A stretch of DNA of 64,000 nt from Candidatus Levyibacteriota bacterium. Its GTDB lineage: Bacteria; Patescibacteriota; Microgenomatia; Levybacterales; UBA12049. The notes beneath the pieces were generated by a model that was not told where the DNA came from, did no database searches, and saw only the letters and a program-made list of their open reading frames with translations. Below, one piece after another: positions 2,884 through 50,746 of the stretch (the first letter of the stretch is position 1; each line of letters starts with the position of its first letter). The stretch covers positions 89,221-153,220 of the forward strand of contig JAJDCG010000001.1 of the NCBI GenBank assembly GCA_029260965.1. The letters are read 5' to 3'. The position numbers were made by a program, and so were the translations under genes.

Positions 2884-4053
2884 CTATTGTGAGCTTAGTG
2901 CCTGAATGCCAGGGAGGGTGCCGTTTTCAATGTAGAAAAGCATTGCTCCTCCTCCAGTTGAGATATGGGTTATTTTATCTAGATATTCCTTTTTGGAGAT
3001 AGCAGCCAGAGTATCACCTCCTCCAATTACAGACATTGCTTTCTCGTTTTCTGCAATTGAATAGTAGAGAAAGTCTGTTCCTCTTTTGAAAACTGGATTT
3101 TCCATGTAGCCAACTGGTCCGTTCCAGATAATGGTGCCTGCCTGATCTATAATTTTTCCAAACTCTGCTTCCGTCTCAGGACCGATATCTAGTACTTGGT
3201 TATGTGGTTCTATTTCTTCGATTTTTTTAACCTCGCTGGTTTTTCCATTTTTGTCATTTGCAATAATCGCATCTTTAGGTAATTCAAAACGAGTTTTTTC
3301 TTCGCGTGCCAAAGATAATATTTCTTTTGCGGTTTTTATATCCTGTTCTTCAATTGGCCCATTGTCAAAACTGTGCCCCTCGGCAACCAGGAAAGCGTTA
3401 GCAAGACCTCCTCCAAGAAGAAGGTAGTCAGCAACAGTTACAAGCTTGTTTATAAATTTTATCTTGGTTCTTATTTTTTTCCCTCCGATGATTGCAACAA
3501 ACGGTTTCTTGGGATTTTTCATTACCCGATCAAGGATAGTAATTTCTTTTTTCATGAGTAAGCCTCCGTATGAAGGAAGATGTTTGGGAATTCCAACAAC
3601 TGATGCGTGCTCACGGTGACTGACACCAAAGGCATCGTTTACATAGACATCACCAAGTGTTGACAGTTCTTTGGCAAATTCAGGATCGTTTTTGGTTTCG
3701 CCTGGATAAAACCTGATGTTCTCAAGGAGTACAATGTCGTGATTATTTTTTGTTAGTCCTTCTGGGTTTTTCAAAAAATCTTTTACAAAGACTATTTTCT
3801 TATCAGGAAGGTACTCTGCAAGCCTGTTCTTGACTCTTATGAGAGAGTCATCAGAATTTCTTTTTTCAGGTTCAGATAGATGTGCAATAATCACGAGCTT
3901 GTTGTGGTTTTTGAGAAGGTATTTGATAGTAGGAAGAGATTGTTTAATTCTCTGATCATCTGCAATTGAGAGGTTAGGGTTAAGCGAGACATTAAAGTCC
4001 ACCCTTAGAAGAACAGTTTTATTTTTTATTTCAACTTCATCAACAAATTTCAT
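2884..4053 (-). CDS. pgk: phosphoglycerate kinase
   Basis: 389 aa. The N-terminus MKFVDEVEIKNKTVLLRVDFNV and an overall length and fold pattern typical of PGK. Confidence 0.85.
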   Translation of the reverse strand: MKFVDEVEIKNKTVLLRVDFNVSLNPNLSIADDQRIKQSLPTIKYLLKNHNKLVIIAHLSEPEKRNSDDSLIRVKNRLAEYLPDKKIVFVKDFLKNPEGLTKNNHDIVLLENIRFYPGETKNDPEFAKELSTLGDVYVNDAFGVSHREHASVVGIPKHLPSYGGLLMKKEITILDRVMKNPKKPFVAIIGGKKIRTKIKFINKLVTVADYLLLGGGLANAFLVAEGHSFDNGPIEEQDIKTAKEILSLAREEKTRFELPKDAIIANDKNGKTSEVKKIEEIEPHNQVLDIGPETEAEFGKIIDQAGTIIWNGPVGYMENPVFKRGTDFLYYSIAENEKAMSVIGGGDTLAAISKKEYLDKITHISTGGGAMLFYIENGTLPGIQALSSQ

Positions 4054-40220: not shown

Positions 40221-40292
40221 TCCCCTGTAGCTCAATGGTAGAGCGCGCGACTGTTAATCGCTAGGTTCGAGGTTCGAATCCTCGCGGGGGAG
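40221..40292 (+). tRNA. tRNA-Asn (anticodon GTT)
   Basis: The acceptor is TCCCCTG/CGGGGGA. D-arm GCTCAATGGTAGAGC. Anticodon loop CTGTTAA. T-arm CGAGGTTCGAATCCTCG. The CCA is not encoded. Confidence 0.85.
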
Positions 40293-40305
40293 CAAAATTG
40301 TCAAT

Positions 40306-40392
40306 TTGTAGCTCAGCGGTACCTGCCTGCCGGCAGGCAGGGAGCAGGAAGCTGCTAACTTCAAGGTCCGAGGTTCGAATCCTCGCGTGGGA
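40306..40392 (+). pseudogene. tRNA-like element / probable tRNA pseudogene with 20-nt palindromic insertion in the D-loop
   Basis: The canonical D-arm GTAGCTCAGCGGTA|GAGC is interrupted by the perfect palindrome CCTGCCTGCCGGCAGGCAGG at 40322-40341. The anticodon-like loop is CTGCTAA. The T-arm and 3' acceptor are near-identical to the tRNA-Asn 3' end, but no complementary 5' acceptor strand is present. Confidence 0.5.
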
Positions 40393-40701
40393 ATCGTAGG
40401 AAGAACAGAACTAGATTTAGACAAACAAATAGCAACCTTTGAGAAAGAAAAGGAGGTAATGTTTACAGTAAAAGATGGTTTGTACGCACATACACCAGAT
40501 GATGGTGGGTTGTTCACAATAAAGCGAGGGCCATTTAGTGTAGCGCTCGATGCGATGCTTTACTGTCGGCTAACAATGGAATATTTAACTCTTGAGAGTT
40601 TTCTCAATATTTTGGAATTTATGTATAAAATCGCTTCTCAAAGAAGAAGTGATGATGCATACTTCCCTAGATTTAGGAATGAAAACGAGTTTTGGAATTA
40701 A
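40387..40701 (+). CDS. hypothetical protein
   Basis: A 104-aa ORF beginning inside the tRNA-like element. The true start is probably an internal Met near 40459. Confidence 0.3.
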   Translation: MGIVGRTELDLDKQIATFEKEKEVMFTVKDGLYAHTPDDGGLFTIKRGPFSVALDAMLYCRLTMEYLTLESFLNILEFMYKIASQRRSDDAYFPRFRNENEFWN

Positions 40702-40734
40702 CTACGTTGCAGGAGTACGGAAAAGTGCCAAATA

Positions 40735-41730
40735 TTGATATTGAAGTACAAATATATGAGCTACTACGAACTAGAGCAAGATAAAGCCATTAGGCAATTT
40801 TTAAAGGATTTTCCTGAACCAACAAAGGACAATCTTTTTATCTTATTTCATAGCCATTTCATATACCCAGATATAGAAACTGAATTTCTAAACAAAGTTG
40901 CAAAAAATGCTATTGATGTAAGTTACGATTATTTTATTTCTCTCCCGAAAACAAAGAGATTCCATTTTTTACGAGCCTTGGGAAAATTAATAGATTCTGC
41001 CTTGTCGTTAAAAATCTGGGAATTCCAGCTCTCAAGAAATGATGCTAAGTGGTATTGGAAAGGTACCCCTACTTACTTTTTAGCATTAACACATTTAGTA
41101 GAACCTCTTGAATCTTTAAGGCACGAAATGGGATTAGTTAAAAGAAAACATTTGTATGAAAAAATTGTTTGTGTAGAGGGAGAAAGCGAACTTAGTTTTA
41201 TAAGGACTATGTATCTAACTGCAAAATATGCAAACTTTGACTTTCCTGTCTACAGCTATAGAGGGAAGGGTGAAATACAGAATTTAATACACTTTATTAA
41301 AGAAAAAAATAGGCAAGGAATAAGAGTTCTCTTATCGTACGATATGGATAGACAGTCAGACTCATTTATTAAGAACATTAAGAAAAAATGCGTTATTGAA
41401 AAAACTTTTGGGTTCAACCAAGACTTCGAAAGCTCATTCCCGCCTAAAATACTAAAGTACTCATTAGATTCCTATATCAAAAGGTACACAAAGTTAAAAA
41501 TATCATTAAATGAAAAAGATGTTGCCGACTTATTAACTCAACAAAAGCCATTTTTAAAAATATTTAGTCAAAAATATAATGTAAAAATTAACAAAGTGAA
41601 GTTTGGTGAGATAATGGGGAAAATTATGGCAGGCATACTATATCAACATTGGAACGATGTTTTTAATAAGCCCATGAAAGCACCATTTAACTATGAAATA
41701 TTTAAGTTTTTAAAATATTTAGTCACATGA
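40735..41730 (+). CDS. TOPRIM-like (DUF4435/RloB/OLD-type) domain protein with N-terminal extension
   Basis: The conserved glutamate lies in KIVCVEGESELSFIRTMY. About 55 aa later, an acidic DxD motif lies in VLLSYDMDRQSD. This is the E...DxD spacing of Toprim folds. The N-terminal ~140 aa has no recognisable domain. Confidence 0.45.
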   Translation: MILKYKYMSYYELEQDKAIRQFLKDFPEPTKDNLFILFHSHFIYPDIETEFLNKVAKNAIDVSYDYFISLPKTKRFHFLRALGKLIDSALSLKIWEFQLSRNDAKWYWKGTPTYFLALTHLVEPLESLRHEMGLVKRKHLYEKIVCVEGESELSFIRTMYLTAKYANFDFPVYSYRGKGEIQNLIHFIKEKNRQGIRVLLSYDMDRQSDSFIKNIKKKCVIEKTFGFNQDFESSFPPKILKYSLDSYIKRYTKLKISLNEKDVADLLTQQKPFLKIFSQKYNVKINKVKFGEIMGKIMAGILYQHWNDVFNKPMKAPFNYEIFKFLKYLVT

Positions 41731-42386
41731 TGTATATAATAAGCTGGCTTCAAGATAACTATGGCTGGACAATTAGTTTGGTGATACAAGGTTTTATTGC
41801 CTATCACGTTTTCTTTTTATCCCAAAGACTATCAAACAGGGAGAGGTTAAAACACAAAGATGCTATAAAAAATAAGGCAGATGAATTGTTATCAGAAATT
41901 CGGAGAAAGAAATTAAATAGTGAAGTATATTTAGTAAACATTAACAGATATTTTAAAGACTATCCATCCAACGAGAAAAGACGATTTGAAGGATATTCCC
42001 ATATCAAAGCAGAAATAAAAACTACAAGATTTGATGGCATTGAGTTTTTTGCTGAAATGCCAAGGGAAGTATATAGAAAATCAGATGGGAGCCTGTCGTT
42101 TAAGGGAAGCAAGAAAGAACATGTATTTAATGCGTTTCCAGTTGGCGTAGTGCCGTATGAATGGATAGAGCATGTGGACACTGCAGGTGATGAGTATGCC
42201 TATGTACCATTGTTCTACTGTCATTTTAAGGGAAGAACACATTGGAAATTTTGGAAACGTTTACTTTTCTTTGGGTATCCTTACAAGCAAATGCTTTATT
42301 ATCGTCTAAGTGATGTGTATAACGAAAGAAATGATCCGATGGAAATGAAGTATGCCTATATAAACGAACCTATTACTAAATCCTAA
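41727..42386 (+). CDS. hypothetical membrane-anchored protein, translationally coupled partner of the TOPRIM-like gene
   Basis: A 4-nt ATGA overlap with the upstream gene. An N-terminal TM helix (WTISLVIQGFIAYHVFFL), then a ~190-aa soluble domain with no known motif. Confidence 0.45.
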   Translation: MMYIISWLQDNYGWTISLVIQGFIAYHVFFLSQRLSNRERLKHKDAIKNKADELLSEIRRKKLNSEVYLVNINRYFKDYPSNEKRRFEGYSHIKAEIKTTRFDGIEFFAEMPREVYRKSDGSLSFKGSKKEHVFNAFPVGVVPYEWIEHVDTAGDEYAYVPLFYCHFKGRTHWKFWKRLLFFGYPYKQMLYYRLSDVYNERNDPMEMKYAYINEPITKS

Positions 42387-42856
42387 CTGACTATAGCCAT
42401 CGCTGGCCGTACTTTCTCCATTTCCTCCTTTAGTTGGTTGATGAACCTAAAATTCTCAAATACCTTGAAGATACGCACAAATTGACTGGTTATATTAACG
42501 TTACGATCCCCGAGCCAAATGGGATTTGCAGGTCGCAAATCCGGGAATTGTGCGAACAAATCAGTATATCTCTGAGGTTCGACCCAATCCTTATACTTTT
42601 CACTCCATTTTTCTTGTTCTGCAAAGGGTATGAGGTGATCATCCAGTTCTATCAATACTTTTTTGTGATTCACCTGTAAGTTCGAGCCGATGTTAAACAA
42701 TACTTCTCTTCTCGCGTCACGACCTCCAACCTTAAATTTTATAGCAGAGCCATAAGCAATATCGATTGCTTCTTCGATTTTTATTCTCCATGATGAAAGA
42801 CTGCCGTGAGCGTTTTCTATCTTGTTAATTAGGGTTTGTTTTGTTGATATGCCCAT
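42383..42856 (-). CDS. hypothetical protein
   Basis: 157 aa. Its C-terminal 30 codons are covered by repeat copy A at 42413-42503. A decayed paralogous C-terminal fragment lies at 45302-45468. Confidence 0.4.
   Translation of the reverse strand: MGISTKQTLINKIENAHGSLSSWRIKIEEAIDIAYGSAIKFKVGGRDARREVLFNIGSNLQVNHKKVLIELDDHLIPFAEQEKWSEKYKDWVEPQRYTDLFAQFPDLRPANPIWLGDRNVNITSQFVRIFKVFENFRFINQLKEEMEKVRPAMAIVS
42413..42503. repeat. ~90-nt direct repeat copy A (about 80% identical to 45362-45451)
   Basis: Shared core ttgaa.at.c.cacaaatt.actggttatattaac.ttacgatcc.cgagc. Confidence 0.6.
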
Positions 42857-43074
42857 ATTTTCGTACCTAACTCCGTATCAGCTAAACTAATTTTTTCCAC
42901 CAGGGCATTCATTCTTGAAAGCCTTCTATTTCCTGTTTGAACTCGAAACTCATGAACACGTAATTCTGTTAAGACATTTCGTGCTTCAACCACCGCTTCT
43001 CTGATTGTTTTCTTGAGGTACTCTTTATCGTTACTACCCTTCCTCTGCGGACAATTCAGCCTTTCGTTTCGCAT
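42829..43074 (-). CDS. hypothetical small protein
   Basis: An 81-aa ORF overlapping the 157-aa gene. No motif. The start is uncertain because the alternative small ORF 43037-43177 overlaps it. Confidence 0.25.
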   Translation of the reverse strand: MRNERLNCPQRKGSNDKEYLKKTIREAVVEARNVLTELRVHEFRVQTGNRRLSRMNALVEKISLADTELGTKIWAYQQNKP

Positions 43075-43177
43075 AATTCACAGCATATGCAACAATAGCT
43101 GCAAGTCCTAAGTTCATTAAAAACAAAACTGCAAAATCAGCAAAAGTAAGCGTTATCATAATCGTATTATAATCCAT
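43037..43177 (-). CDS. small hydrophobic peptide (47 aa, single TM, charged C-terminus)
   Basis: MDYNTIMITLTFADFAVLFLMNLGLAAIVAYAVNYAKRKAELSAEEG. A good SD (AGAGG, 5 nt upstream of the ATG). Not in the ORF track because it is under 60 aa. Confidence 0.35.
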
Positions 43178-43207
43178 TTGAACCTCTGATATAATCACAT
43201 CATTAGT

Positions 43208-43693
43208 ATGGAAGATGAAAATGTTAAGAAAGCCAAAGATATAATCTCAAAAATTCTTTATATCACTATTGCTACTGCTTCCAAAGATGGAACTCCTTGG
43301 AATAGCCCTGTTTATTCAGCATACGATGACGAGTATAATTTCTTTTGGGCATCAGATCAAAACGGTCAGCATTCAAAGAACATAGCGGAAAACAACAAAG
43401 TGTTTCTGGTTATTTATGACTCTACAGCAGCAGAAGGAACTGGTGAAGGAGTATATATTCAAGCAAAGACATCCATGCTTACTGATCCTGAAGAAATAGC
43501 ACATGCGCTAGAATGCCTTGATGGACGAGTGAACAAGAAGAAAGACCCCCTGTCAAGAATTGCTCAGTTTCAAGGAGACAAGCCAAGAAGGGTCTATAAA
43601 GCAGTTCCAGAAAAAGTTTGGATAAATGGTGATGGAGACGTAAATGGCGAGTATATTGATATACGGATGGAGATTGATTTACTAGGGAAATAG
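43208..43693 (+). CDS. pyridoxamine 5'-phosphate oxidase-like FMN-binding (general stress protein 26 family) protein
   Basis: ILYITIATASKDGTPWNSPVYSAYDDEYNFFWASDQNGQHSKNIAENNKVFLVIYD. Confidence 0.6.
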   Translation: MEDENVKKAKDIISKILYITIATASKDGTPWNSPVYSAYDDEYNFFWASDQNGQHSKNIAENNKVFLVIYDSTAAEGTGEGVYIQAKTSMLTDPEEIAHALECLDGRVNKKKDPLSRIAQFQGDKPRRVYKAVPEKVWINGDGDVNGEYIDIRMEIDLLGK

Positions 43694-43694
43694 T

Positions 43695-44165
43695 ATGGAC
43701 GACAAGCATTACTTACAACTAGCCATAGAACAAGCAAAAAAATCAGTTGACGAAGATGGTTTCCCAGCTGGAGCAATCATTGTCAAGAATGGGCAAGTAC
43801 TAGCTGAAGGGATTAGTGTTGGCTTCAAGAACAACGACCCAACGGGGCATGCCGAAACTTCTGCAATAAGAGCAGCTTGTCAAAAAGTAAAATCTTCTGA
43901 TTTAACAGGTGCAGTGTTGTATGAGTCCTTGGAATGTTGCAACATGTGCTTTTCGGTAGCAAATTGGGCAGGTGTATCAAAAATCGTATTTGCTTGCAAG
44001 AAGACACCTGAGATGGTAAATAAACTTTATTATGAAGGAACTACCAGTAATTATTTACTTAACCAAAGTAACAGTCATAAAATAGACCTCGTATTTATTC
44101 CTGATTTCGAGCAAGCAGCTCTAGATCTAGTTAAAAGTTGGGAGGAAAAAAACAATGGAATATAA
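43695..44165 (+). CDS. CMP/dCMP-type nucleoside/nucleotide deaminase (TadA/guanine deaminase-like)
   Basis: The zinc ligands are HAETSAIRAAC...LECCNMCFSVANWAG (H.E and PC..C). Confidence 0.7.
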   Translation: MDDKHYLQLAIEQAKKSVDEDGFPAGAIIVKNGQVLAEGISVGFKNNDPTGHAETSAIRAACQKVKSSDLTGAVLYESLECCNMCFSVANWAGVSKIVFACKKTPEMVNKLYYEGTTSNYLLNQSNSHKIDLVFIPDFEQAALDLVKSWEEKNNGI

Positions 44166-44529
44166 CAAATTAACAATAATTATTAAAAAACCACTTGCGG
44201 AAGTTTTTGCATTTTGTATTACGCCACCAAAGGCAAAACTCTGGGTGCCAAATATTATCGATGAAAAAACAAATGAGTCGCCAATTAAAGTTGGGACTGT
44301 TTATACAGAATATAAGGATGACAAGACCTCATTTAACATAATCGTTACCGATTACAGGGAGAATGATTACATCGAGTGGAAAACAGAGGATGGGAATTAT
44401 CATGTTAGATATACGTTTACATCGATTGACCAAAATACTACACAACTTGAATATGTTGAAACTGGAAATGTTGATGAGCCTTTTACTCAAGAGGTTTTGG
44501 AGAAACTTAAGGTTGTCATAGAAAGTTAA
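44155..44529 (+). CDS. SRPBCC (START/Bet v1-like, polyketide cyclase-type) domain protein
   Basis: 124 aa, IIIKKPLAEVFAFCITPPKAKLWVPNI...YIEWKTEDGNYHVRYTF. Confidence 0.5.
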   Translation: MEYNKLTIIIKKPLAEVFAFCITPPKAKLWVPNIIDEKTNESPIKVGTVYTEYKDDKTSFNIIVTDYRENDYIEWKTEDGNYHVRYTFTSIDQNTTQLEYVETGNVDEPFTQEVLEKLKVVIES

Positions 44530-44666
44530 ATTGAGAGCAATGTTTTTGTCTGTTGCATAACAACATCAGGATAATCAATAATCTCTAACCAGTTGGAGCC
44601 GTAGAAATCGTTCCACTTGGGGAGCATAATTAATTTGGCCTTGAAATTAATCAACCCAGTTAATAT

Positions 44667-45305
44667 TTAATATAGCCTTTGGCTACATGAGGCAGACCCA
44701 AGCCATGTATGTGGATTGCCATCCCAACACCACCCAAGATTTGGTTGTTTTTTTGAATTTAGCCATATAGCTGGAACTCTTTTATTCCCTTTGCATCGAG
44801 ATGCTAAAAGCGAAAAGCAATTATTTTTCATCAAAAATTTAGGATAGTGAGTAATGATTGCAACTCCCTCATCAATGGTTAATGGGAAACGACTATCTTT
44901 AGCTATTAAGTCAAATGCTTCATTTGGTGGGAGATTTATGTTTAGTTTCCCTCTGTCTATGTTGAGACACATATAAACGTTTTGTTTTGGAATAGGTACA
45001 TCCTTTATTGGACTGAAATTTCTGGGTTCATGTGGGTAGAGTTTTATTATTCCATCTTTGCCGTCTTTGCTGGCGTGTGTCATGGCAAACTCCGTCGAGA
45101 CAAATTTGTTTGATACGACAATTACAAAAGGTAGTGTGCCTTTTTCGTAATCAATATCATATGTTGCTGAGTCCACCTTCATTATAAGTGGTTCTACTAT
45201 AGCCTTGAATTTCTCTCTGGATAAATTTGCTGCTTCGGGGTAGCCGTTATCCAGCAAATTATCCAGCTGTCGTTTAAACTCCAAATGTAATATGTCTTGT
45301 TTCAT
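44667..45305 (-). CDS. hypothetical protein
   Basis: 212-aa ORF. Its ATG overlaps the stop of the upstream pseudogene fragment (ATGA). No assignable domain. The 3' boundary is uncertain. Confidence 0.4.
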   Translation of the reverse strand: MKQDILHLEFKRQLDNLLDNGYPEAANLSREKFKAIVEPLIMKVDSATYDIDYEKGTLPFVIVVSNKFVSTEFAMTHASKDGKDGIIKLYPHEPRNFSPIKDVPIPKQNVYMCLNIDRGKLNINLPPNEAFDLIAKDSRFPLTIDEGVAIITHYPKFLMKNNCFSLLASRCKGNKRVPAIWLNSKKQPNLGWCWDGNPHTWLGSASCSQRLY

Positions 45306-45468
45306 ATATAAATAATAGCATTTATCCCTGTATAGGAACTACTACTGGCTTCACTTTGTTCATTTTTTCTTAGTTGGCCAGTAAACTTGAAATCTTCAAA
45401 CATCTTGAATATGCACACAAATTTACTGGTTATATTAACCTTACGATCCTCGAGCTCAACCAAAAGTT
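45302..45468 (-). pseudogene. C-terminal gene fragment paralogous to the 3' end of gene 42383-42856 (repeat copy B)
   Basis: The minus-strand translation ELLVELEDRKVNITSKFVCIFKMFEDFKFTGQLRKNEQ... matches WLGDRNVNITSQFVRIFKVFENFRFINQLKEEMEK. The frame opens straight after an in-frame TAG stop and the first in-frame Met is the internal M of KMFEDF. Confidence 0.5.
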
Positions 45469-45493: not shown

Positions 45494-45994
45494 ATGAGTA
45501 AACTAATTACATGCATTTGGTTTGCGGGCAATGACGGAGAAGAGGCAGCAAACTACTACATAGATACTTTTAATTCTGCACCAGGTGATCACAGTGCAAA
45601 AATAGGAGATATTACAAAATCTCCTAAAGCATCAGAAGAAGTTTCCGGAAGACCTGAAGGATCTGTTATGACAGCTGAATACGAGCTTGATGGAATAAGC
45701 TTCATGGCTCTCAATGGTGGTCCTGTTGATCAATTCAAACTTAACGGCGCAACTTCATATATTGTGGAGTGCGAAACACAAGAAGAAATTGATTTCTTCT
45801 GGGAAAAACTTTCAGCAGATCCTGAAGCTGGACAATGCGGATGGTGTCAAGACCGCTTCGGTGTCACATGGCAAATAGTTCCAAGGATTTTGGATGAACT
45901 GATGAGAGATCCTCAAAAAGCTGAGGCAGTAACCGCTGCTTTTATGCCAATGAAGAAAATTGACCTTGAAACAATCCGAAAAGCCGGCGAATAA
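45494..45994 (+). CDS. VOC-superfamily (PhnB/3-demethylubiquinone-9 3-methyltransferase-like) protein
   Basis: MSKLITCIWFAGNDGEEAANYYIDTF...GQCGWCQDRFGVTWQIVP. The start was set at the internal ATG at 45494. The upstream extension of the longer ORF is the repeat. Confidence 0.7.
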   Translation: MSKLITCIWFAGNDGEEAANYYIDTFNSAPGDHSAKIGDITKSPKASEEVSGRPEGSVMTAEYELDGISFMALNGGPVDQFKLNGATSYIVECETQEEIDFFWEKLSADPEAGQCGWCQDRFGVTWQIVPRILDELMRDPQKAEAVTAAFMPMKKIDLETIRKAGE

Positions 45995-47102: not shown

Positions 47103-47996
47103 ATGTCAAATAAAAAAATTGTCCCTCATCTATGGTTTGATACTCAGGCTGTTGAAGCAGCTGATTTTTATGTATCGACATTTGGTGAAGGATCAAAAGT
47201 TACCAACAAGTATAAACTTCACAATACGCCATCAGGAGATGTAGACACAGTGAGCTTCAATCTCTTGGGAATAGATTTTATGGCAATTTCAGCTGGACCT
47301 TTTTTCAAATTTAATCCATCAATTTCATTTATTGTTGGCTGCGAAACCAAAGAGGAGGTAAATAGACTCTGGGAAAAATTATCAGAAGGCGGAAAGACGC
47401 TTATGCCTCTTGATAAATATCCATTTTCTGAACGCTTTGGCTGGATTCAGGATAAATTTGGCCTTTCATGGCAGCTAATCTTTACACATCCTGAGGGTGA
47501 TCAAAGACCCAGAATTGTCCCAGCTCTTCTTTTTACAAATGAAGTTTCTGGAAAGGCAGATGAGGCGATTAGGTTCTATTTATCTGTTTTTAAAGATTCC
47601 AAGATGGGCAGCAAAATGACTTACGGACCAGATCAAAAACCAGAAAAAGAAGGAAATATCATGTTTGCTGACTTCCAGCTTTTTGACACATGGATGGCTG
47701 CAATGGATAGCTCTCTAGATCACAAATTCAATTTCGGTGAAGCAATCTCATTTATCCTTAACTGTGATACGCAGGAAGAAATAGATTATTATTGGGAGAA
47801 ATTATCTTTTGTTCCAGAATCAGAGCAATGCGGCTGGCTCAAGGATAAGTATGGTATCAGCTGGCAGATTATTCCAAAGATTCTTGACGAGATGCTTGAG
47901 AAAGGTAGCAAAGAGCAGGCAGAACGTGTCACACAAGCCTTTCTTAAAATGAAAAAATTTGATATCAAAAAACTCAAAAAGGCTTATACTAAATAA
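47103..47996 (+). CDS. tandem-domain VOC/PhnB-like protein
   Basis: There are two repeats, each with the pattern [18 protein letters not shown]...[14 protein letters not shown]. The second repeat has [16 protein letters not shown]. Confidence 0.7.
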
Positions 47997-50117: not shown

Positions 50118-50360
50118 ATGCAACAGACTGTAATAAAAGTCGGAAATTCTCTTGCTGTAACTGTTCCCAGCACTTTTGCAAAAGAAAGGAAACTCAAGGC
50201 TGGTCAGAAAGTATTTGTTCAGGCAGATTCTGATTCTGATATTATGCAGGTAAGCACAGAACAAAACCCTGATACAAGTATGAGTCCGGAATTTTTGAGT
50301 TGGCTTAAAAAATTTAATGCAAAATATAAGAAAGGCCTCACAGAGCTTGCCAAAAAGTGA
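50118..50360 (+). CDS. AbrB/MazE/SpoVT-type antitoxin
   Basis: MQQTVIKVGNSLAVTVPSTFAKERKLKAGQKVFV is a swapped-hairpin beta-barrel. A 4-nt overlap with the downstream Doc gene. Confidence 0.7.
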   Translation: MQQTVIKVGNSLAVTVPSTFAKERKLKAGQKVFVQADSDSDIMQVSTEQNPDTSMSPEFLSWLKKFNAKYKKGLTELAKK

Positions 50361-50746
50361 AAGTAAGATACATATCTTTTAAAGAAGTAGCCGCAATTCA
50401 CGAAGACATGATTGATCAATATGGTGGAAGTCATGGGATTCGAGATCTGGGACTTGTAGAATCTGCGCTGGCAAGACCTCAAGCTCCATTTAGTAAAATT
50501 GATCTGTATAAGACAATCTTTGATAAAGCTGCAGCGCTTTTTCATTCCATGATGTTTAATTATGCATTTGTTGATGGCAATAAACGTACGACTTTTGCTA
50601 TAGCTGTTAGATTTTTGTATAAAAACGGCTATTCTTTGGAGATTTCTCAGGAAGAAGTAGTTAATTTTCCGCTTAGTGTAGAAAATGAACATCTTTCAGT
50701 GGAAGAAATCGCCGCGTGGCTCGAGGATAACTCCAAAAAAACTTAG
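50357..50746 (+). CDS. Doc/Fic-family toxin (death-on-curing)
   Basis: The Fic/Doc motif is HSMMFNYAFVDGNKRTTF (H.F.DGNKR). Confidence 0.8.
   Translation: MKVRYISFKEVAAIHEDMIDQYGGSHGIRDLGLVESALARPQAPFSKIDLYKTIFDKAAALFHSMMFNYAFVDGNKRTTFAIAVRFLYKNGYSLEISQEEVVNFPLSVENEHLSVEEIAAWLEDNSKKT

Follow-up and report, generated by a model that had tools for sequence, protein, structure and literature searches.

A probable attachment site within the 3' end of large serine recombinase genes delimits a decayed tRNA-Asn island in a Levyibacteriota genome

tRNA-linked islands that grow by tandem accretion, and the cis-mobilizable elements (CIMEs) of the ICESt1/St3 family, arise through repeated insertion at one attachment (att) site, and CIMEs are non-autonomous, att-bounded elements that could be mobilised in trans. 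These systems depend on tyrosine integrases, and their identical core repeats are copied from the target gene. The serine-integrase prophages phiC31, Bxb1, A118 and TP901-1 have attP beside the int gene and not within it, and to our knowledge they neither form arrays nor encode a conserved C-terminal tail across the site. Mobile elements of bacteria of the Candidate Phyla Radiation (CPR), which have small genomes and few recognised routes of gene gain, are poorly known. In the SSV-type 'suicidal' integrases (SSV1, pTN3, pT26-2) the site lies within the integrase's own gene, so that integration at a tRNA gene fragments the integrase gene and its pieces come to border the element; these enzymes are tyrosine recombinases and were stated to be exclusive to Archaea in a 2021 review (PMC8371274). 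The present study concerns a 64,000-nt stretch of the Candidatus Levyibacteriota assembly GCA_029260965.1 (contig JAJDCG010000001.1, positions 89,221 to 153,220), hereafter the window, in which a tRNA-Asn gene is followed by two copies, A and B, of a direct repeat. Our comparisons suggest that the repeat is the 3' coding end, or tail, of a large serine recombinase (LSR) gene. Probably, the att site lies inside this 3' end, integration at tRNA-Asn splits off the tail, and the window holds two stacked, decayed elements. For the window itself the outcome is an annotation: positions 40294-45455 are likely to be a decayed two-element island, and a 157-aa open reading frame (ORF) within it is likely to be a recombinase stump.

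The repeats flank a discrete patch of accessory genes of 2.94 kb, and their positions are essentially those given in a preliminary description of this DNA. A repeat search aligned 42430-42515 with 45370-45455 in direct orientation (86 nt, 80% identity, ungapped), and blastn extended the alignment to 42403-42515 and 45345-45455 (113 nt, 77% identity, one gap, E=4.5e-19). Besides this pair, blastn found no match under E=0.1 in the 64-kb window, the next best having an E-value of 0.11. The 34-nt core pattern of the repeat matched twice in the window as compared to 0.00 matches expected from 100 shuffles, and a nucleotide profile of the tail (nhmmer) scored tail A at 124 bits (E=1.4e-36) and tail B at 83 bits (E=5.4e-24). 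The identity is thus clearly above what AT-rich sequence would give as background; an identity no higher than that background is what the preliminary description had named as the observation that would speak against its view. Nothing beyond the modest identity of 77-80% favours a chance similarity, and the probability of this explanation is close to nil. A search of the repeat region with Rfam found nothing, and the idea of a structured-RNA target was therefore dropped.

Copy A comprises the codons for residues ~114-150 of the 157-aa ORF on the minus strand (42383-42856), and it thus represents the C-terminus of this ORF, as previously noted. On the minus strand, copy B reads ..ELLVELEDRKVNITSKFVCIFKMFEDFKFTGQLRKNEQ.. 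(also given as ..ELEDRKVNITSKFVCIFKMFEDFKF..). Its frame opens 7 codons ahead of the homology, directly after a stop codon; its sole Met is internal, which leaves it without a usable start, and the 212-aa DUF5701 gene begins with an ATG that overlaps its TGA (ATGA, 45302-45305). The peptides of copies A and B share 64% amino-acid identity over 28 residues (tblastn), and compared to the tail family copy B shows many non-synonymous changes and a 2-nt deletion. These details agree with the earlier view of copy B as a gene fragment without function, related by homology to the 157-aa gene's 3' end. Another minus-strand ORF of 157 aa, at 50219-50692, is unrelated to the repeat gene.

The 157-aa ORF had been assigned to a gene family, but it is not an intact member of one. 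Its homologies identify it as the C-terminal ~155 residues, or the last ~27%, of an LSR of ~575 aa, and hence as a remnant and not a functional member. Its residues 1-113 match residues 422-533 of a 575-aa protein of contig L047 (59.8% identity over 112 residues, tblastn E=3e-44; L-numbers denote comparison contigs or loci, and P-numbers protein relatives). When full-length relatives were used as tblastn queries, only residues 422-533 were matched in the window, and no homology was found further upstream. The 575-aa protein and the two LSRs of contig L030, LSR_A and LSR_B, contain the Resolvase, Recombinase and Zn_ribbon_recom domains (Pfam) and are, by domain content, ordinary LSRs. The 157-aa ORF had no match in Pfam, PHROGs or NCBIfam, and the Resolvase (PF00239), Recombinase (PF07508) and zinc ribbon (PF13408) domains were not detected in it. 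The homology to the C-terminal region of the L047 protein, together with the absence of homology upstream, points to an LSR remnant that lacks the catalytic and DNA-binding domains. An AlphaFold model of the ORF was uninformative (mean predicted local distance difference test score of 45) and was not used. A word-indexed protein search retrieved only three relatives (P0002, P0003 and P0004), and protein-pattern scans of genome and viral contigs returned no relative. P0003 has a zinc-ribbon-like start and ends with the same tail as the window gene. The C-termini of P0002 (contig L001) and P0004 (L003) read ..DLRPANPxWL followed by RGLDSNQQP or PRVDSNHGPIA, and the 3' ends of both ORFs overlap a convergent tRNA-Asn gene on their own contigs; an ORF with a Recombinase domain lies upstream of P0002.

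Comparison of the window with these tRNA-fused relatives revealed where the two kinds of ending diverge. The recombinase-side sequence ..GATTTGCGACCTGCAAATCC....TGGCTC is common to all of them, and the homology stops at TGGCTC. Past this point, the tRNA-fused relatives switch to tRNA-Asn in reverse complement (CCCCGCGAGGATTCGAACC..), whereas the window continues with GGGGATCGTAACGTTAATATAACC... The A/B repeat begins at the very GCTC where L001 and L003 switch to tRNA-Asn, a coincidence to the base that fits site-specific integration between att arms rather than duplication of a piece of a gene. The start of the tail, GAGGATCGTAAC, resembles the T-arm of tRNA-Asn, GAGGATTCGAAC. The same TGGCTC junction type is shared by 67 distinct tail junctions. 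Nine full-length relatives inspected in a library clustered at 50% (493-554 aa) end at the junction with at most a few tRNA-antisense residues, their C-termini being WLPR, WLPD, WLR.., WLPRVDSNHEPTA, WLPREDSDLEPADYK and similar. Recombinase ORFs fused to tRNA-Asn were found in L001, L003 and L030, and a convergent tRNA-Asn gene lies downstream of the tails in L030, L031, L034, L042, L057 and the window. Joints of a left (recombinase-side) module with the 3' end of tRNA-Gln in L056 and with a tRNA-His fragment in L037 indicate that tRNA-Asn is not the sole partner. A conserved 8-bp hairpin, GGATTTGC-GACCT-GCAAATCC, is present within the DLRPANP codons of the window-type arm (42516-42550 on the minus strand, L001 and L003).

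This anatomy resembles that of the SSV-type integrases, in that the site appears to lie inside the recombinase's own ORF and integration would split the gene. The junction of tail-bearing ORFs is located ~43 codons before the stop codon, and both tail-less relatives and abundant orphan tails exist. However, the enzyme is a serine recombinase of bacterial origin, and only the last ~43 codons are detached while the catalytic body stays intact. In its mode of action the system thus parallels the SSV-type integrases, but it falls outside that group, which is defined by a tyrosine fold and an archaeal host. The likeness to the serine-integrase prophages lies in the shared Resolvase, Recombinase and zinc ribbon architecture and, for the L030-type arm, in a plausible site of ~50 bp with outer inverted motifs and a central crossover.

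The recurring unit is a tail of ~125 nt, or ~43 codons, that encodes LE and then DRNVNITSQFVRIFKVFEDFRFISQLREEMDKVRPAVAI up to a stop codon. In the search for further family members, which the preliminary description had proposed, the first 22-mer of the tail, GGATCGTAANGTTAATATAACC, was found in 49 metagenome contigs from JGI and in 21 genome contigs from GTDB, and it is absent from the viral contigs searched. Most of the genome records are labelled as Patescibacteria or Microgenomates-type candidate phyla (metagenome-assembled genomes (MAGs) of CPR bacteria). Eight are labelled Gammaproteobacteria and one Omnitrophota; these labels are unconfirmed, and they may reflect mislabelling, bin contamination or a wider host range. 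The tail-bearing MAG contigs labelled Gammaproteobacteria or Omnitrophota include L054, L055, L062, L065, L066, L067, L068 and L070.

Among 33 distinct tails of standard length, the variability at the first, second and third codon positions was 0.07, 0.05 and 0.25, from which it would appear that the tail peptide is, or recently was, under purifying selection. A long upstream ORF continues through only 8 of the 67 distinct junctions. At the remaining junctions, the tail frame opens 0-60 codons upstream without a start codon, and these tails are therefore orphans. Likewise, about 50 of the 96 matches in the 50%-cluster library were short ORFs that cover the tail only. Where the reading frame is continuous, the tail supplies the in-frame end of LSR ORFs of two types (L047, L030 and L066), and in P0006 a diverged tail, ..NFQSIIDKFQELKYFGEMKQRWLEI.., follows the same domain.

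The wide distribution of the tail bears on the earlier interpretation of the repeat as the product of a past duplication or recombination event. An ordinary local duplication or illegitimate recombination of a gene 3' end, with one copy decaying, would account for two copies of 77-80% identity and for the frameshift and non-synonymous changes in copy B. It would not account for a module that recurs in ~70 unrelated contigs, mostly as an orphan, with a sharply conserved left boundary that equals the tRNA fusion point of homologues, and with uniform orientation within contigs. Moreover, the nhmmer scores place copy A nearer to the tails of other contigs than to copy B. We therefore consider a local duplication very improbable and retain the recombination part of the earlier interpretation.

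A profile search with nhmmer at a threshold of E<=1e-3 identified 99 tails. Their orientation was uniform within every source (99 to 0). Two or more tails were present in 23 sources, several of which are overlapping copies of the same sequence, and the spacings within sources ranged from 507-514 nt up to ~7.6 kb. The clearest case is L030, where LSR_A (540 aa) with its tail is followed by a convergent 219-aa gene, cargo, and LSR_B (528 aa), which runs into tRNA-Asn. The tail and the 219-aa gene of the window (42515..41757) and of L030 (2411-3172) share 82% DNA identity over 762 nt. This homology starts exactly at the junction, and the recombinases upstream of it differ in type between the two loci (~27% identical). 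The same tail and 219-aa gene behind different LSR types place the breakpoint at the junction.

The left arms are likewise joined to alternative partners, tail or tRNA, so that breakpoints are shared as in integrative elements. In L051 and L024, tails are preceded by a 58-nt left module, GAGGTTATATTAAGTATCAACCGAC..GATGTGCTC, which abuts tRNA-Asn directly in L031 and is joined to a degenerate tRNA end in L006. A distinct left module in L027, GAGGTTATATTAAGAATCTTC..GGTTTGCTC, is joined to a degenerate tRNA 3' end, and the partner of the arm GCACTGAGCTTGCCGAAGTGCTC is a tail in L007 and tRNA-Asn in L057. In the L030-type arms, the tail's TTAATATAACC has a mirror image in an outer 11-mer, GGKTATATTAA, the two being about equally far from CTCGAG. 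The corresponding P-arm motif GGKTATATTWD was measured in L006, L007, L012, L025, L027, L028, L035, L039, L042, L044, L051, L061, L070 and L073; its distance from the CTCGAG junction takes three discrete values (11, 21 or 41-43 nt), approximately whole helical turns apart. Cassettes that hold a single gene and no recombinase, flanked by a tail and a left module, are common to different contigs, and the homology between them again begins at the junction. The ATG of the cassette gene is preceded, ~35 nt upstream, by TTAATATAACC, which is the left module's reverse complement and has the appearance of a -10 box. The recombinase-bearing elements of L047 and L030 share a small backbone upstream of the recombinase, consisting of an 82-aa protein of similar sequence type and helix-turn-helix-like and other small ORFs, which suggests an autonomous element core.

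Arrays of this kind could also be expected if the module were the end of a non-autonomous repeat resembling a miniature inverted-repeat transposable element, or the cassette site of another enzyme, for example an integron-like tyrosine recombinase, the link to LSRs then being incidental. There are indeed many arrays whose cassettes, of 507-514 nt and 850 nt, contain one gene and no recombinase, and several islands lack an LSR. However, the module completes LSR ORFs of two types in frame, its junction coincides with the LSR-tRNA fusions, and neither terminal inverted repeats nor target duplications were seen. Furthermore, when the ORF lists of L006, L027, L030 and L066 were inspected, without a systematic screen or a search with hidden Markov models, no other recombinase and in particular nothing IntI-like was noticed. 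We regard this explanation as improbable. The likeness to integrons consists of ordered arrays in one orientation, made up mostly of single-gene cassettes without a recombinase that each have their own recombination module. Integrons differ by their IntI tyrosine recombinase, by attC sites in the form of folded single strands and by a promoter-bearing attI platform, none of which was observed here, and the tail module, unlike attC, encodes a peptide with codon-type conservation.

The closest functional analogue would be the composite islands of the staphylococcal cassette chromosome (SCC). Like SCC, SCCmec and ACME, in which large serine recombinases (Ccr) insert at the 3' end of one conserved gene, the present elements appear to be stacked in tandem, with direct repeats in the same orientation between modules and with some modules devoid of recombinase genes (PMC7029739). 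The differences are that the SCC target is rlmH/orfX and the target here is a tRNA 3' end; that SCC repeats are ~15 bp and encode no conserved peptide, whereas those described here are ~125 nt and peptide-coding; and that the SCC att site is not inside the recombinase ORF. The host lineage differs as well, and the recombinase subfamily presumably does too. From tRNA-linked islands and CIMEs the arrays are distinguished by repeats that are recombinase-coding tails and not copies of the tRNA.

It could further be argued that the tail is primarily an insertion target, either chromosomal or element-borne, and that the recombinase-tail fusions are products of integration and not the native gene. 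In both L030 and the window the tail is linked to the downstream 219-aa cargo gene and not to the upstream recombinase, near-identical tails follow two recombinase types that are only ~27% identical, and there is no symmetry between the tail and the left arm of the window type. On the other hand, the startless orphan tails belong to a family with a clear third-position pattern, which needs translation as part of a longer protein. The diverged tail that follows the same domain in P0006 and the tail's inverted 11-mer in the L030-type left arm are also difficult to reconcile with a mere target. We therefore judge this alternative to be rather unlikely as a complete explanation. It does not exclude an att site in the native LSR 3' end, as tails may in addition serve as secondary targets.

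According to the preferred explanation, that of an att site inside the LSR's own 3' end, attP would be located within the recombinase ORF and the gene of the free element would read body-TGGCTC-tail, with the first ~28 nt of the tail (GCTCGAGGATCGTAACGTTAATATAACC) forming one arm of the site. Integration at the 3' end of tRNA-Asn would fuse the body to a few tRNA-antisense codons (..WLPR.DSN..) at one end of the element and leave the tail as an orphan at its other end. Repeated insertions at the same tRNA would stack elements head to tail, so that at each internal border the older element would contribute its left arm and the newer one its tail. Applied to the window, the distal element (42516-45455) would comprise orphan tail B, four cargo genes and an LSR cut down to its last ~113 residues, and the proximal element (~40388-42515) tail A, the 219-aa gene, the TOPRIM-like gene and a 104-aa ORF, its recombinase having been lost. 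Copy A would then mark the junction of the truncated LSR with the tail of the tRNA-proximal element, and the element with the recombinase remnant would have tail B as its cognate 3' end. In other words, the 157-aa ORF would be chimeric, with an LSR stump joined to the neighbouring element's tail. The stronger decay of tail B, with its lower profile score, 2-nt deletion and replacements, fits an element whose enzyme was lost long ago. The recombinase-side flank of copy B is unrelated to that of copy A and has neither a recombinase nor a P-arm motif. With island borders at 40293 and 45455, the empty site would read tRNA-Asn, then ..GAGC followed by TCAACCAAAAGTTCCTAAAGTGTG.. and the PhnB-like gene. 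The order of events, a crossover within GCTC and catalysis by the LSR are inferred; the homologies, the positions of the junctions, the orientation rule and the association with tRNA genes are observed. With respect to the earlier proposal that the repeats could mediate deletion or inversion of the intervening genes, deletion or excision is compatible with direct repeats and inversion is not. As the sole recombinase in the window is truncated, present-day mobility is doubtful, and both elements now look immobile.

Several observations weigh against this explanation. Neither an unoccupied tRNA-Asn site nor a circular form nor an excision junction came to light, so that integration is deduced from comparative anatomy only. 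Exact-protein look-ups of both genes flanking the island found nothing, the only other copy (L074) has the same arrangement, and none of the fetched contigs had terminal overlaps or was circular. The overall dyad symmetry of the putative attP did not exceed that of shuffled sequences. Only the outer 11-mer (GGKTATATTAA/TTAATATAACC) is symmetric; the window-type (L047-like) left arm lacks it, and elsewhere its distance takes three different values (11, 21 and ~42 nt). Stacking would moreover need recombination with a hybrid site, which is atypical of canonical LSRs. The tRNA-Asn-ending islands L031, L034, L042 and L057 are without a detectable LSR, other recombinases not having been screened for. 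Finally, the tRNA-side border of the proximal element is undefined, with a pseudo-tRNA where its left arm would be expected.

In the literature we found no description of serine recombinases of CPR bacteria or Patescibacteria, of their tRNA-Asn islands, or of an attP within a serine integrase gene, although our coverage was incomplete and an earlier description is possible. The tail system is thus apparently an undescribed and widespread variant of serine-recombinase integration in CPR bacteria. Its distinguishing anatomy is a recombinase gene that is cut by its own integration, a tail peptide encoded across the att site, and cassette-bearing arrays anchored at tRNA-Asn and elsewhere at tRNA-Gln or tRNA-His. 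More tentatively, it can be proposed that CPR bacteria possess a serine-recombinase gene-capture system with the att site in its own coding end, in which each integration at a tRNA 3' end detaches the conserved 43-residue tail. Such a system would correspond, in bacteria and with serine recombinases, to the archaeal 'suicidal' integrases, and successive events would build integron-like arrays of one orientation from autonomous elements and recombinase-less single-gene cassettes. The presence or absence of the tail could then provide a built-in switch of recombinase activity or directionality. If the anatomy described here were confirmed, the principle of the self-splitting integrase would be extended from archaeal tyrosine recombinases to bacterial serine recombinases. 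In addition, the tail 22-mer or profile would become a simple marker with which to delimit islands of accessory genes in metagenome bins of CPR bacteria. With short, well-defined sites and compact enzymes, the system lends itself directly to tests in vitro and might also interest those who use serine integrases as tools.

Table 1. Coordinates of features in the window and on comparison contigs. Coordinates marked rc refer to the reverse complement of the contig.
Feature	Locus	Coordinates	Strand	Remarks
tRNA-Asn(GTT)	window	40221..40293	+	ARAGORN and Rfam (68.7 bits); putative attachment target (3' end as B' arm) and island anchor
Degenerate tRNA-Asn-like pseudogene	window	40307..40387	+	Rfam tRNA, 34.8 bits, model positions 6-65
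Cargo of proximal element	window	40388..42382	+	104-aa ORF, 331-aa protein, 219-aa membrane-anchored protein; no recombinase left
331-aa ORF	window	40735-41730	+	OLD-like TOPRIM similarity, weak and short of the Pfam cut-off (E=0.0034)
219-aa gene	window	41727-42386	+	N-terminal hydrophobic helix
219-aa gene	L030	2543-3202 (rc)		N-terminal hydrophobic helix
Tail A (copy A)	window	42392..42515	-	Last ~43 codons of the 157-aa ORF; stop 42383-42385; putative P' arm of proximal element
Junction TGGCTC (GAGCCA on +)	window	42512..42517	-	Putative crossover region
LSR remnant, residues 1-113 of the 157-aa ORF	window	42516..42856	-	tblastn to L047
Two short ORFs (81 aa; 53-54 aa) upstream of LSR remnant	window	42829..43198	-	
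PNPOx-like gene	window	43208-43693	+	Distal-element cargo (Pfam)
Cytidine/dCMP deaminase gene	window	43695-44165	+	Distal-element cargo (Pfam)
DUF3284/SRPBCC-like gene	window	44155-44529	+	Distal-element cargo (Pfam)
DUF5701 gene (212 aa)	window	44667-45305	-	Distal-element cargo (Pfam)
Tail B (copy B)	window	45336..45455	-	Decayed orphan tail; putative distal junction (chromosome flank / P' arm)
Chromosomal flank	window	right of 45455		..TCAACCAAAAGTTCC.. then PhnB-like gene
PhnB-like gene	window	45494-45994	+	
Backbone-bearing element	L047	629-5476 (rc)		
Backbone-bearing element	L030	6764-10181 (rc)		
Left module/tRNA-Gln joint	L056	~3030-3157 (rc)		
Left module/tRNA-His fragment joint	L037	~3290-3458		
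850-nt cassette	L006/L024/L027/L051			203-aa RibD_C-like protein, antisense to tail
514-nt-spacing cassette	L018/L035/L048/L060			99-aa membrane protein, antisense to tail

The individual features of the island are listed in Table 1. The pseudo-tRNA is located 14 nt after the real tRNA-Asn gene, has a 21-nt insertion in its D-loop and the anticodon loop CUGCUAA, and is possibly the scar of an earlier event. An analogous arrangement is seen in L037, where a partial tRNA-His copy lies beside the full gene and the P-arm motif is located ahead of the partial copy. The 331-aa ORF, for which scans with Pfam, PHROGs and NCBIfam were otherwise uninformative, could, judging from its TOPRIM similarity, be a defence or nuclease cargo gene. 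The 219-aa protein has no family match in Pfam, PHROGs or NCBIfam; in the window and in L030/L062 (82% DNA identity over 762 nt) its gene travels with the tail, to which it is convergent and whose stop codon it overlaps by 4 nt. A function within the element, such as that of a directionality factor, is conceivable for this protein. For the two short ORFs upstream of the LSR remnant, no homology was detectable with Pfam, PHROGs, NCBIfam or by tblastn with relatives, and they are possibly debris of the recombinase deletion. The order of the distal cargo genes is repeated on an independent Logan assembly contig (L074). The GC content of the island does not set it apart. Just outside the island lie paralogues of the PhnB/3-demethylubiquinone-9 3-methyltransferase family, namely the PhnB-like gene of Table 1 and one at 47103-47996 on the plus strand; one of these is a two-domain fusion, and together the paralogues account for a further repeat family of the window, D1 (45734, 47304 and 47727).

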